Origin: Candidatus Bipolaricaulota bacterium | GTDB lineage: Bacteria > Bipolaricaulota > Bipolaricaulia > RBG-16-55-9 > DRXL01 | DNA length: 64,000 nt | NCBI GenBank assembly: GCA_030550495.1 | Contig: JAUQPG010000001.1 | Location: 44,512 to 108,511, forward strand | Direction: 5' to 3' | In this document: positions 4,409 through 8,105 of the stretch, one piece after another | How the letters are laid out: every line of letters begins with the position of its first letter | Position numbering within the stretch: position 1 is the first letter of the stretch | Position numbers and translations under genes: made by a program | Notes under the pieces: model-generated | The model's input: only the letters and a program-made list of their open reading frames with translations | Told to the model about the DNA's origin: nothing | Database searches by the model: none

Positions 4409-5528
4409 CAACCCAGAGCGCATCCTGGGCAACATCTACAAGGGGATCGTGCGCGATATTCTGCCGGGGATCAACTCAGCCTTTGTCGACGTAGGGCTTG
4501 AGGAGAAGCTCTTTCTCTCGATTAAAGAAGTCAGTGACAGCCTGCTGCGCGAGCATCGCGCCGGCAAGAAATCTCAGATCCAGAAGCTCTTCAAGAGCGG
4601 CCAACAGATCATTTTGCAGGTGAAGCGGGAGGGGATCGGGACGAAGAACCCCCAAGGGACGATGAAGATCAGCCTTCCCGGGCGCTATTGGGTCTTCTTG
4701 CCCACGGATGAGCGCTTGGGGGTCTCACGACGGATCACCGATGAGCAGGAGAGCCGACGCCTCAAAAAGATCGCCAAGAAGCTTAAACGCAAAGGAGAGG
4801 GGCTGATTGCGCGCACCGCGGCTGCTGGTGCTTCTGAAGAAGACCTTGAGCGAGACTTCAATTATCTCTTGGGGACATGGAAAGGGATCGAAGAGCAAGC
4901 GCAGCGTGTGAAGGCTCCGGCGCTGCTCTATCGCGGGCCGGATCTCGTGCGCGCTTTCTTACGTGATCGCTTGATAGAAGACGTCAAACGCGTGGTAGTT
5001 GACAGTGAGCGCGTCTATCAGCAGATCAAGGATTTTCTCTCGTACATGCACATGGAAGAGTTCTTAGATCGTATAGAGCTCTATCGTGGGAAGCGGCCGC
5101 TCTTTGAAGTCCGCGGGGTGGAGAAACAATTACGAGAGAGCTTGCAGCCGCGGGTGCGCCTGCCTAGTGGGGGCTTCCTCGTGATTGCGGAGACCGAGGC
5201 GCTCACGGCCATTGACGTAAACACCGGCAGCGATGTGAGGCATCAGGATCAGGAGCAGGCGATCCTCAACACGAACCTGGAGGCTGCTGAGGAGATCCCG
5301 CGGCAGTTGCGGCTGCGCAAGCTGAGCGGGATTATCATCGCGGACTTTGTGGATATGAAGCGGCGCGACCACCTCGAAAAAGTGATTCACAAGCTTCAAG
5401 AGGAGCTGAAGAAGGACCGCGTGCCCGCGGATTTTGTGGACATTACGAAGTTAGGGCTGGTGGAGATCACGCGCAAGCGCGAGGGGGAGAGTTTGCTGGG
5501 CATGCTGGAGGAGGAAGAGGAGACTTGA
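4356..5528 (+). CDS. rng: Ribonuclease G/E family endoribonuclease (S1 plus catalytic domain)
   Basis: RIALLEDGRLMEIHYD…NIYKGIVRDILPGINSAFVDVGLEEKLFL…DVNTGS. The conserved N-terminal segment (TEILIETVAPV) lies in-frame upstream of the first GTG (4356) with no canonical start; RBS AAGGAGG at 4304-4310. Confidence 0.75.
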   Translation: MTRIALLEDGRLMEIHYDNPERILGNIYKGIVRDILPGINSAFVDVGLEEKLFLSIKEVSDSLLREHRAGKKSQIQKLFKSGQQIILQVKREGIGTKNPQGTMKISLPGRYWVFLPTDERLGVSRRITDEQESRRLKKIAKKLKRKGEGLIARTAAAGASEEDLERDFNYLLGTWKGIEEQAQRVKAPALLYRGPDLVRAFLRDRLIEDVKRVVVDSERVYQQIKDFLSYMHMEEFLDRIELYRGKRPLFEVRGVEKQLRESLQPRVRLPSGGFLVIAETEALTAIDVNTGSDVRHQDQEQAILNTNLEAAEEIPRQLRLRKLSGIIIADFVDMKRRDHLEKVIHKLQEELKKDRVPADFVDITKLGLVEITRKREGESLLGMLEEEEET

Positions 5529-5603
5529 AAGTGTCCGGGAAACACGCTAATATGTCTTGCTATAGACTGTGAACTGGCAACTTGCAACTGAGACCTATCT
5601 CGT

Positions 5604-5678
5604 GGGCGCATAGCTCAGCGGGAGAGCGCCTGCTTCACACGCAGGAGGTCCGAGGTTCAAGTCCTCGTGCGCCCACCC
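5604..5678 (+). tRNA. tRNA-Val (anticodon CAC)
   Basis: Cloverleaf read by hand: acceptor GGGCGCA/TGCGCCC, D-stem GCTC/GAGC, anticodon stem CCTGC/GCAGG with loop TTCACAC, T-arm CGAGG-TTCAAGT-CCTCG, discriminator A, CC. Confidence 0.9.
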
Positions 5679-5691
5679 GAAGGGGTATCTC

Positions 5692-5961
5692 ATGAAGACG
5701 CTCAATATCCCCGTCCCTGAAGACCTGCCTGATTTGCTGAAGATGTCCGACGAAGAATTTCGTAGGGAAGCCCAACTTTTACTTGCTACTAAGCTTTATG
5801 AACTAGGCAAGCTTACCGCGGGCATGGCTGCTCGCCTCGCCGGTGTGGACAGAGTCACATTCTTGACCCTGCTCGCTCGCTACCACGCCCCAGCAATCAA
5901 CCTCACAGGCGACGAAGTAATGCGTGAAATAGAAGCAGCTCGAGGGCTTGCCACGCCATGA
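5692..5961 (+). CDS. UPF0175-family antitoxin-like protein
   Basis: 89 aa: …EEFRREAQLLLATKLYELGKLTAGMAARLAGVDRVTFLTLLARY…, the typical UPF0175 signature. Overlaps the next gene by 4 nt. Confidence 0.6.
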   Translation: MKTLNIPVPEDLPDLLKMSDEEFRREAQLLLATKLYELGKLTAGMAARLAGVDRVTFLTLLARYHAPAINLTGDEVMREIEAARGLATP

Positions 5962-6443
5962 AGCGCCGCGTCTCCAATGCTTCCCCCGCCATCTTTTTAG
6001 CCAAGCTCGACCGGCTGGAACTGTTGCGCCTTGGCGTGGATGAAGTCTTGATCCCCACAGAAGTTCTCGCGGAACTTCGTGCCAAGCAAGATGATGTCAC
6101 TCAACACTTGGAGAAGCACCTGAACACGTGGCTCAGGGAATGTCAACTTGTTCAACGAGAAGCTGCGCAACTATTGATCGACTTGGACGAAGGAGAGCGG
6201 GCAGCCATAGCTCAAGCGTTACAAGAGCAAGCGATCAGCATAGCTACTGATGATATGGCCGCACGGCGCTTGGCGCGCCGCCTTGGCCTGGAGCCCATTG
6301 GCACAGTTGGACTGCTCTTAGCAGCCAAAAAGCGCGGGATGCTCCAATCTTTGCAAGCCGAGATCGGACGACTTAAGGCCTTGGGCTTTTGGATTGCTGA
6401 TGATTTAGTACGACAAGCCTTGCATGAGGCAGGAGAAACATAA
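5958..6443 (+). CDS. DUF3368 / PIN-like putative toxin (partner of UPF0175)
   Basis: 161 aa. N-terminus (AIFLAKLDRLELLRLGVDEVLIPTEVLAEL) resembles DUF3368 PIN-like nucleic-acid-binding proteins. Translationally coupled to the upstream small gene. Confidence 0.55.
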   Translation: MKRRVSNASPAIFLAKLDRLELLRLGVDEVLIPTEVLAELRAKQDDVTQHLEKHLNTWLRECQLVQREAAQLLIDLDEGERAAIAQALQEQAISIATDDMAARRLARRLGLEPIGTVGLLLAAKKRGMLQSLQAEIGRLKALGFWIADDLVRQALHEAGET

Positions 6444-6484
6444 CACACGCAGGAGGTCCGAGGTTCAAGTCCTCGTGCGCCCAC
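6444..6484 (+). repeat. 41-bp direct repeat of the tRNA-Val 3' part (anticodon nt 34 to acceptor end); attR-like
   Basis: 6444-6484 is identical to 5636-5676 (CACACGCAGGAGGTCCGAGGTTCAAGTCCTCGTGCGCCCAC); flanking bases differ. Confidence 0.85.
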
Positions 6485-8105
6485 TATACATATGCTCCTG
6501 CGCCGTGCCTGCCGGCAAAAAGAGCGTCACAATCAGGGCTAACACGGCAACGATCAACCCAACAATAAAGACCCAATGGAGCGCTGTCGCTAAGATCTGT
6601 TGGAGCGCGTCTAAAACGGGAGCCGGCAGCTGCGCCCGCGTCACTGGATTGATCAGCGCGTCGGGGTGGCGCAAAAGATCAGCTAACTTCTCTGCAGACA
6701 GCGAGCTGCCTAGCTCTGGGAGATTATTCACTTGCACCTGCATCTGAGCGCTCAGCACTGCTCCCATAACCGCAACACCGACCGCTCCCCCAATAGAGCG
6801 GAAGAAGACTATCCCCGACGTCGCTATCCCCAATCGATCGCGCGGCACTGAAGTCTGTACAGCAATTAGGAGCGTGATCATCGAGAAGCCCATCCCCGCC
6901 CCCGCGAGCGCTAAATAGCCCATCACTATGAGTCGGCTTGCCTCGGCATTCAGGGTTGCTAGCCCAAGAAAGCCCGCGACCAGCAGCCCAACCCCAAGCA
7001 ACGCTATAGGGCGGTAGCCAACTTTTAGGATCATCCGGCTCCCGATAATAGAGAAGCTGACCCAGCAGAGCATGAACGGCGTGAGCGCCGTACCCGCTTC
7101 GGTCGCCGTCGTCCCAATGACTCCCTGCACAAAGAGCGGGATGAACGAGAGCGAGCCGAACATCGCCATGCCAACAAAGAAGCCGTTCGCCGAAGAGACG
7201 CTAAAAATTCTGTGTCGGAAGAGCGCAAGCGGCACAATGGGTTCTTGCGCACGACGCTCCAAAGCTATAAAAAGCACGAGCAACACAACACAGATACCGA
7301 AGAGTCCCAGCTTCACGAGGGAGTCCAAACTCTGCTGTCCTAGGGCGAGTAGCAGCAACGTTGCCAAAGCTGTGAGCGTGATCGCTCCAGCATAGTCTAT
7401 TGTGACTTTTTTGCGATGGTCGCGCGGCTCGACGAGCGCCAGTCCGATCAAGACTGCTGCCGCGATCCCGAACGGGATATTGATATAAAAGACCCAGCGC
7501 CACGAGAGGTGGTCCGTGATGAAGCCCCCAATGAGCGGGCCGATGATGCTCGCCAGCCCCCAAACCCCACTAAAGAGCCCTTGCATCCGTGCGCGCTTTT
7601 CGAGTGAGTAGATCTCCCCGATGATCGTCATGCCCAGAGGCAGGAGCGCCCCGGCTCCCAAGCCCTGAATGGCGCGAAAGAACACAAGCTGACTCATAGA
7701 CGTCGCTGCCCCAGAGAGCGCCGATCCAATGAGAAAGATCGCGATGCCCAGTAATATAAAGCGCCTGCGCCCGTACAGATCCGAGAGCCGCCCCCACAAC
7801 GGCACAGTTACTGTCGAAGTCAGAATATATGCTGAGAAGACCCAACTATAGATATGCAAGCCTCCTAAGCTGGCGATCACTGTGGGCATAGCTGTCCCGA
7901 CGACAGTTGCTTCTAAAGCGCCAAGGAAGAGCCCAAGCATGACGCCGAGCGTGACGGTCGCCCGCCGGGAGGGCGTCAACGGGATCGGCTCAGCTACAGC
8001 GAGATTAGCTGCAAGGGGCTGCGCCTCCGCACACGCACCCCCAGATGATGAGTCCAGCTTGCTCATAAGGAGTGCGAGTATAGCACAAATGAGCAGGACG
8101 CTCAA
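6465..8105 (-). CDS. MFS transporter, DHA2 (EmrB/QacA-like, 14-TMS) family
   Basis: …LGALEATVVGTAMPTVIASLGG…GRLSDLYGRRRFILLGIAIF…GLGAGALLP… True start is probably an internal Met; the stop lies inside the tRNA-fragment repeat. Confidence 0.8.
   Translation of the reverse strand: MSVLLICAILALLMSKLDSSSGGACAEAQPLAANLAVAEPIPLTPSRRATVTLGVMLGLFLGALEATVVGTAMPTVIASLGGLHIYSWVFSAYILTSTVTVPLWGRLSDLYGRRRFILLGIAIFLIGSALSGAATSMSQLVFFRAIQGLGAGALLPLGMTIIGEIYSLEKRARMQGLFSGVWGLASIIGPLIGGFITDHLSWRWVFYINIPFGIAAAVLIGLALVEPRDHRKKVTIDYAGAITLTALATLLLLALGQQSLDSLVKLGLFGICVVLLVLFIALERRAQEPIVPLALFRHRIFSVSSANGFFVGMAMFGSLSFIPLFVQGVIGTTATEAGTALTPFMLCWVSFSIIGSRMILKVGYRPIALLGVGLLVAGFLGLATLNAEASRLIVMGYLALAGAGMGFSMITLLIAVQTSVPRDRLGIATSGIVFFRSIGGAVGVAVMGAVLSAQMQVQVNNLPELGSSLSAEKLADLLRHPDALINPVTRAQLPAPVLDALQQILATALHWVFIVGLIVAVLALIVTLFLPAGTAQEHMYSGRTRT

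Follow-up and report, generated by a model that had tools for sequence, protein, structure and literature searches.

How did a small pair of toxin-antitoxin-like genes come to lie between a valine tRNA gene and a transporter gene, with half of the tRNA gene repeated on its far side? This question is raised by a locus of Candidatus Bipolaricaulota bacterium (GenBank assembly GCA_030550495.1, contig JAUQPG010000001.1), which we studied within a stretch of 64,000 nucleotides, hereafter the window. By its RNase G gene, upstream of the tRNA, the window belongs to Candidatus Bipolaricaulota (Acetothermia). The 3' half of tRNA-Val(CAC) occurs twice in this locus, and the two copies enclose an islet that encodes only a UPF0175 antitoxin-like protein and a DUF3368 PIN-like, toxin-like protein. 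The islet is the scar of an insertion of the classical kind known from tRNA genes, and it is probably what is left of an integrative element that eroded until nothing but an addictive or defensive two-gene module remained. Loci of relatives are designated by L numbers (L001 etc.), and positions given without an L number refer to the window. The locus consists of the following features.

5525..5553, + strand: promoter-like site TTGAAA-17 nt-TAATAT, upstream of tRNA-Val (promoter/terminator scan)
5604..5675, + strand: intact tRNA-Val(CAC), CCA not encoded; functionally attL, that is, host 5' part plus repeat (ARAGORN, Rfam)
5636..5676, + strand: left copy of the 41-bp repeat, beginning with the anticodon and ending one base after the discriminator (exact repeat search)
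5677..5691, + strand: 15-nt spacer with a Shine-Dalgarno-like GAAGGGG, the left edge of the insert (related junction in L036, scar in L008)
5692..5961, + strand: antitoxin-like gene, 89 amino acids, UPF0175 / COG2886 helix-turn-helix family (Pfam E = 4.1e-23)
5958..6443, + strand: toxin-like gene, 161 amino acids, DUF3368 / COG2405 PIN-fold nuclease (Pfam E = 8e-11)
6444..6484, + strand: right copy of the 41-bp repeat, an attR-like tRNA 3' half, whose opposite strand encodes the end of the MFS gene (its last 6 codons and the stop)
6465..8105, - strand: host MFS transporter gene, a neighbour outside the insert (MFS_1 E = 6e-58, synteny)

Two exact copies of the 41-bp string CACACGCAGGAGGTCCGAGGTTCAAGTCCTCGTGCGCCCAC are present in the window, one at 5636-5676 and the other at 6444-6484, in direct orientation and with identity at 41 of 41 positions. 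No third copy was found in the 64 kb even when up to three mismatches were allowed, and the number expected by chance was zero (100 shuffles). Its left edge coincides with the first anticodon base (CAC at 5636-5638), and its right edge lies one base beyond the discriminator A (5675) of the sole tRNA gene in the window, which was called at 5603-5678 by ARAGORN and at 5604-5675 by Rfam (71.2 bits). The unique DNA between the copies (5677-6443) measures 767 bp, or 808 bp as a unit with one repeat copy, and holds just two open reading frames (ORFs), which overlap by ATGA at 5958-5961. The antitoxin ATG follows the first repeat after 15 nt, and the toxin stop codon TAA (6441-6443) abuts the second repeat with 0 nt between them. 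On the other side, the MFS stop codon TGA is read from the strand opposite 6465-6467, where the second repeat corresponds to the T-loop. No pseudogene debris was seen inside the islet, no local inverted repeat was found at the cassette ends, and Rfam matched nothing in the window other than the tRNA. An earlier note on this DNA had described the exact duplication of the tRNA 3' half, a translationally coupled pair as the only content of roughly 770 bp, and an MFS gene ending inside the right copy; the repeat search with its shuffles, the Pfam matches together with the ATGA overlap, and the position of the MFS stop bear out all three, with the insert now measured exactly.

That the islet was inserted is shown by relatives, the closest sampled of which have the empty site. 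The same note had proposed comparing the tRNA-Val locus among related genomes, and this comparison yielded both empty sites and an integrase-bearing locus (L005, considered below). In 10 related loci (L001, L002, L006, L009, L014, L039, L043, L046-L048; RNase G 85-93% identical in amino acids) the order RNase G - tRNA-Val - MFS - pyrF - trkA is kept, tRNA to MFS is uninterrupted, as in the empty sites of tRNA-integrated islands, and no homologue of the toxin or antitoxin is present. The tRNA-Val(CAC) of the window is identical in sequence to that of the empty-site relatives, and immediately to the right of the second repeat the window continues with a sequence (TATACATATGCTCCTGCGCC...) similar to the one found after the tRNA in the empty sites. 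Thus the 808-bp unit has been inserted, and what now forms the second repeat is the original 3' half of the tRNA gene, displaced. The MFS ORF of the empty-site relatives ends antisense inside the true tRNA-Val, and the last six MFS codons are therefore fixed by the tRNA sequence. In these relatives, as in the window, the complement of the T-loop TCA serves as the MFS stop (L001 11274-11295, with equivalents in L002, L006, L009, L014 and L046-L048; window 6465-6484).

The islet itself recurs in several other assemblies. L032, from the same organism in another sample (reads SRR27730027; 99.4% identical), carries it with two mismatches in the second repeat. L035, L036 and L037 belong to a separate lineage with about 77% nucleotide identity; in these loci the position of the pair is the same and its left junction is similar, and on the right the toxin gene is followed by a spacer of 54 nt and a repeat of 37 nt that has one mismatch (36/37 in L036). 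This recurrence bears on the proposal that the duplication is a conserved structural or regulatory feature, a chance repeat or an assembly artefact. The second repeat is indeed well conserved and supplies the MFS C-terminus, and the independent assembly L032 has the same arrangement, but no match is expected by chance, the second copy and the pair are both absent from most relatives, and the region of the second repeat shows no significant RNA structure (z = -1.0 and -1.4 versus shuffles). An assembly artefact is excluded because the islet is reproduced in independent assemblies from other samples (L032, L034, L035-L037). The proposal as a whole, already refuted by the empty sites, can hardly be credited. 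The second repeat was also considered as a terminator or structured RNA and rejected, since it folds no better than shuffled sequences and no T-run follows it.

If the islet is an insertion with the ends of a tRNA-integrated island, namely one intact tRNA and the tRNA 3' part repeated at both ends, the next question is which recombinase made it. None is encoded in the 767-bp insert, where both ORFs match only UPF0175 and DUF3368 above the Pfam cut-off. Furthermore, tblastn with the clade's own integrase against the whole 64-kb window returned nothing at E <= 10, and Pfam on 17 of the 59 window ORFs found housekeeping genes only and no integrase. The islet thus lacks the integrase of its own that tRNA islands encode, as the earlier note had stated, and consists of attL and attR without recombination or transfer genes, which is the layout of a cis-mobilizable element (CIME). 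A regular-expression hit to the tyrosine-recombinase box I/II in the window proved to be a GHMP kinase.

Integrases were found at tRNA genes of the relatives, however, including the tRNA gene of the window. A 149-aa (amino acid) orphan gene that recurs in several tRNA-Val islets led us to the element in L066, in which a 313-aa XerD-like tyrosine integrase lies directly downstream of tRNA-Val(UAC) and beside the 149-aa gene, within a larger element that has a resolvase. The L066 segment beyond the integrase has 81% nucleotide identity to the DNA after tRNA-Val(CAC) in L041, L068, L004 and L007, and 72% in L013; in all of these loci the segment begins 17 nt after the tRNA and the integrase is gone. 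Intermediate stages are found as well. In L005 (contig JBKBIX010000078.1), an integrase gene begins 64 nt after the RNase G-adjacent tRNA-Val(CAC); its first 52 codons (81% identical to L066) are present before the contig ends. In L040, what remains of the integrase is its upstream region and about 6 codons, after which unrelated DNA begins. Another family member (85% identity) lies behind tRNA-Ala(UGC) in L071, in an element of more than 10 kb with resolvase, DnaB and ParE genes. Integrative elements that target tRNA genes are thus present in the clade, one of them at the very tRNA of the window, and the decay to integrase-less islets can be traced step by step. Together with the empty sites, the integrase at the same tRNA-Val in L005 supports the reading of the two repeats as attL and attR that the earlier note had put forward.

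The members of this XerD-like integrase family are 79-91% identical and stand directly after three tRNA genes, Ala-UGC (L071 9775-10855), Val-UAC (L066 6604-7683) and Val-CAC (L005 6178-6473). One family behind three different tRNA genes suggests, from gene positions, that these enzymes may be easily retargeted among tRNAs. The 149-aa orphan, the neighbour of the integrase in L066, survives in integrase-less islets and served as our marker of the element. Its family is confined to Bipolaricaulota (18 clusters; L013 9461-9910 (-), L041, L068 6001-6450, L004, L066 6001-6450), and it has no match in Pfam, NCBIfam, PHROGs or PADLOC. Between integrase and orphan lies a conserved segment of about 130 nt (L013 9330-9480 (+); L066 6450-6575 (-)), which holds a promoter-like TTGACA...TGCTTTAATATA as well as a GC hairpin with a run of nine T behind it, and which may be a small RNA of the element.

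These observations fit the following history. A mobile element would have integrated into tRNA-Val(CAC) by site-specific recombination of the tyrosine-integrase type, crossing over in the anticodon loop or close to it. This loop is a canonical crossover sublocation for tRNA-targeting integrases, as are the T-arm boundaries. The element's own copy of the tRNA 3' half would have completed the tRNA anew on the left, and the host's own 3' half, now displaced, would have come to lie on the right, where the MFS gene still takes its end from it. The integrase, which we infer to have once been present in this islet, and all other genes of the element would later have been deleted, so that the UPF0175 / DUF3368-PIN pair alone survived, possibly because it is addictive, useful as a defence module, or both. 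The two repeats would permit precise loss of the unit and probably gene conversion between the copies, and we propose that these two processes account for the patchy presence and absence among relatives. Were the 808-bp unit to be excised as a circle, its hypothetical attP junction would read ...GGAGAAACATAA + 41-bp repeat + CCGAAGGGGTATCTCATG (toxin stop - 41 bp - CCGAAGGGGTATCTCATG), and the restored attB would be the tRNA 5' half + 41-bp repeat + TATACATATGC. Erosion by ordinary deletion can be viewed directly in L008, where just the first ~25 nt of the cassette are kept after the tRNA and other DNA, including an AbrB/PIN pair, follows; this remnant is a deletion or replacement scar.

The surviving pair has the marks of a functional module. 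Both proteins pass the curated Pfam cut-offs (UPF0175, 81.3 bits against 27.9; DUF3368, 42.1 bits against 27.3), and their small, adjacent and co-directional genes, antitoxin first and with overlapping stop and start codons, are arranged as in toxin-antitoxin systems of type II. In PADLOC the pair matches the candidate defence system PDC-S70 (toxin E = 1.9e-38, antitoxin E = 1.6e-8). The AlphaFold model of the toxin, built from 19 homologues, has a predicted confidence (pLDDT) of 92.5, and its best fold matches in the PDB are the PIN/VapC proteins 1o4w, 5h4g and 2mdt. Residues E39, E80 and D98 are invariant in the 19 homologues; the first acidic position of PIN domains is Asn in the toxin's subfamily and Asn or Asp across the family. 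The toxin-like protein is thus predicted to combine a PIN fold with conserved acidic residues. The combination of COG2886 (UPF0175) and COG2405 (DUF3368) has been predicted to be a PIN-type toxin-antitoxin system (PMC2701414, PMC5499597), and one PDC-S70 representative is reported to have protected E. coli B against phages T4, T5 and T7 (bioRxiv 10.1101/2024.09.26.614923). For the pair described here, toxin-antitoxin or defence activity is a prediction from these homologies. Searches of NCBIfam, PHROGs and PDB sequences with both proteins gave no matches, and the toxin had no match on plasmids.

Between the window and L036, the synonymous divergence (dS) of the pair is 0.94-1.27, and that of the flanking MFS gene is 1.06; the ratio of nonsynonymous to synonymous substitution (omega) is 0.05 for the antitoxin and 0.10 for the toxin. 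It follows that the pair is old and functional and has diverged as much as its surroundings. It is under strong purifying selection, with dS of about 1 between the two carrier lineages.

As for its expression, the only plus-strand promoter-like site upstream of the pair is the TTGAAA-17-TAATAT at 5525-5553, which precedes the tRNA, and the promoter/terminator scan found neither a promoter-like nor a terminator-like site from the tRNA to the toxin stop. This arrangement points to read-through from the tRNA promoter; the pair is probably transcribed together with tRNA-Val and released by processing of the tRNA 3' end.

Of the two readings offered by the earlier note, the evidence favours the eroded stump with a retained addiction module, while the idea of a toxin-antitoxin family that itself targets tRNAs found no support. 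Nine loci of distant homologues (57-63% identity) have no nearby tRNA, and the repeats flanking them do not exceed those in shuffled controls. The UPF0175/DUF3368 family is therefore not tRNA-targeting by itself. L033, whose pair is 79% identical, had been suspected of carrying an upstream tRNA fragment; the alignment shows none, and the similarity is limited to the two genes and the ribosome-binding site.

Several findings nevertheless weigh against an eroded element. No homology was found that links the UPF0175/DUF3368 cassette to the integrase-bearing elements of L066, L071 and L005. The insert has a GC content of 0.54-0.56 against 0.55-0.59 outside, and so it lacks the atypical composition of islands. 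The junctions are very tight (15 nt and 0 nt), with no pseudogene debris between them, and a purpose-built minimal cassette would look alike. The 41-nt repeat starts in the anticodon loop, whereas the L066-type derivatives have T-arm/acceptor repeats of 14 nt and 26 nt; on account of this mismatch in length and position, a different element or integrase may be responsible. In a neighbour-joining tree of the MFS, carriers of the pair fall into two clades, each with empty-site sisters, which requires several precise losses or more than one gain. Finally, the second repeat is conserved far more than neutrally evolving DNA would be, with 41/41 in the window and 36/37 in L036 despite a dS of about 1. 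If the repeat is a passive scar, gene conversion is needed to account for this. The simplest account is that the tRNA copy, 808 bp upstream, served as the donor; the alternative is selection on a working recombination site. On the other hand, the second repeat differs at two positions between the window and the 99.4% identical strain L032.

In this clade, tRNA-Val is a hot spot for insertions. Besides the islet, no fewer than six insertions are found in relatives at this tRNA-Val junction, as listed below, and none of these islets encodes a recombinase.

L013: insertion of 1.25 kb with a 26-nt repeat
L041: insertion of ~1.95 kb, Phd-like, with a 14-nt tRNA fragment/repeat at the far end
L044: insertion of ~1.15 kb in which no repeat was detected
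L034, from a strain with 98-99% identity to the window: in tandem, the pair, a tRNA fragment of 43 nt, an NYN gene, a further fragment of 23 nt and a NosD-like gene
L045/L049: insertion with NYN and Phd/PIN genes and a repeat of ~124 nt
L008: insertion with an AbrB/PIN pair

The cargo at the site is mostly toxin-antitoxin-like or defence-like, and in L051 it is MNT.

A first rival is that the islet is a minimal promoterless cassette that never had, or no longer needs, an integrase of its own and is moved in trans at the tRNA-Val 3' half by a resident integrase, in the manner of a CIME or, more loosely, of an integron cassette taken up behind a strong promoter. The perfectly compact boundaries and the conservation of the second repeat would be expected of such a cassette, as would the occurrence of the pair in two clades whose nearest relatives are empty. 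The nearest relatives of L035-L037, namely L046 and L047, are empty at an MFS dS of just 0.10 (L035 versus L046), and the clean empty site of L046 beside the carrier L035 is compatible with excision that restored attB. The tandem cassettes of L034, separated by tRNA-Val fragments of 43 nt and 23 nt, point the same way, as do the clade's integrases next to tRNA genes, the window's tRNA-Val included, and the count of recombinases, which is 0 among ~7 different insertions at the site. No circular or attP form has been seen, however. The contig L045, whose end repeats are equally well explained by an assembly-graph bubble, had been considered as a circular excised form, but it is not decisive: its ends begin and finish exactly where assembly-graph branches are expected, so it proves no circle. 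The L008 scar, the truncated integrase of L040 and the different right junction of the L036 lineage (54-nt spacer, 37-nt repeat) are signs of ordinary deletion and not of a clean exchange of cassettes, the agreement between the dS of the pair and that of its flank fits long vertical residence, and no recombination motif beyond the tRNA fragment is shared by the cassette ends, whose junctions were read by eye with no formal search. Weighing both sides, we regard mobilisation in trans as unlikely.

A bolder extension would make the tRNA-Val 3' half the attachment site of an integron-like platform, in which promoterless micro-cassettes with toxin-antitoxin or defence genes, each ending in a tRNA-Val fragment, are captured behind the constitutive tRNA promoter and are stacked in tandem or removed in trans by resident XerD-like integrases. 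If this were true, the well-conserved second repeat would be a working recombination site. We consider such a platform quite unlikely.

A further rival dispenses with a recombinase altogether. Circular or linear DNA with a tRNA-Val copy would have entered by RecA-dependent (Campbell-type) or illegitimate recombination, duplicating the homologous stretch, and then spread through homologous recombination in the conserved flanks. The ~124-nt repeat of L045/L049 fits this idea, because it includes 54-57 nt of non-tRNA flank and so resembles plain homology more than an att core; repeat lengths at the site also vary widely (14, 23, 26, 37, 41 and 124 nt), and presence and absence do not follow the tree. 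The repeats, however, are bounded at the anticodon loop in the window and at the T-arm in L013 and L034, which are canonical integrase sublocations, and a tyrosine integrase gene lies at exactly the window's tRNA in L005. Moreover, 41 bp is marginal for RecA-mediated integration, and an earlier event that placed the tRNA fragment on the incoming DNA is still needed. An origin of this kind is improbable, and the eroded integrative element is the reading that we retain.

Some further observations were made along the way. The 2045-bp contig L045 (1-2045), which has the NYN and Phd/PIN genes, repeats 87 nt at both ends and comes from the same metagenome (FWPU) as L049; its repeat unit is composed of tRNA-Val nt 5-75 with a 1-nt deletion and 54-57 nt of chromosomal flank found in the empty-site contig L049. 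The NYN cassette protein (L034 528-1172; L045; L061-L063) matches the PADLOC candidate HEC-09 (1e-14) and has 65-67% identical relatives on three IMG/VR viral contigs. No viral contig was found with the tRNA 3' end, the toxin or the integrase. The 3'-terminal CCA is not encoded in the tRNA-Val of the window (5676-5678), nor in L009, L007 and L011, and it is encoded in several close relatives, the comparison having covered L001, L002, L006, L014 and L036; CCA encoding thus varies within the clade, and it also differs between the left and right junctions of insertions. L034 (JAWAQJ010000145.1) was deposited as Candidatus Methanomethylicaceae archaeon, but its toxin gene and MFS flank are 98-99% identical to those of the window; the contig is almost certainly mis-binned, judging by this identity. 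The same may hold for P0139, an integrase that carries the label Caldarchaeum.

The islet offers a clean natural example of how a mobile element in a small genome decays down to an addiction or defence module, with the stages of decay (intact integrase, truncated integrase, no integrase) kept in relatives at the same tRNA. It also puts on record, for a candidate phylum without cultured members, a hot spot of integration and defence and a family of integrases that target tRNA genes, and it draws attention to a toxin-antitoxin pair whose expression seems to rely on a tRNA promoter.

How, then, does the islet compare with known systems? Integron gene cassettes often carry toxin-antitoxin modules, and they resemble the islet as compact, promoterless units of one or two genes behind an upstream promoter, with tandem units split by a repeat that looks like a recombination site. 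Unlike them, the islet has no attC-type imperfect palindrome and no adjacent IntI or attI, and its repeat is a tRNA 3' half. The pair has much in common with the COG2886-COG2405 toxin-antitoxin systems and PDC-S70, including both Pfam families, overlapping co-directional genes, the predicted PIN fold with its acidic residues, and matches to the PADLOC hidden Markov models; it departs from them in having no promoter/operator region of its own, in lying 15 nt behind a tRNA, and in the Asn at the first PIN acidic position.

CIMEs, which derive from integrative conjugative elements, consist of attL and attR around DNA that has no recombination or transfer genes; they probably arise by deletion and can occur in tandem. 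The islet shares this flanking by attL and attR, and differs in lacking a known cognate integrase or conjugative partner for these sites, in its uncultured Bipolaricaulota host, and in a cargo that is a single toxin-antitoxin pair. Islands and prophages that sit in the 3' parts of tRNA genes through the action of tyrosine integrases are said to have been described by Reiter et al. in 1989 and by Williams in 2002, the sublocations of Williams reportedly being the anticodon loop, the T-loop and the 3' end. Compared with these, the islet is without integrase, attP arms and other element genes, is not atypical in composition and, at 767 bp, is far below the size of any autonomous element. What it has in common with them is an intact tRNA with a direct repeat of its 3' part, identity that starts in the anticodon loop, empty sites in relatives, and a tRNA-Val that has been used repeatedly, with tandem cassettes in L034. 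The islet is, in this respect, a well-known and ordinary kind of genomic scar that leaves current understanding unchanged, and it would carry more weight only if the cassettes moved in trans.

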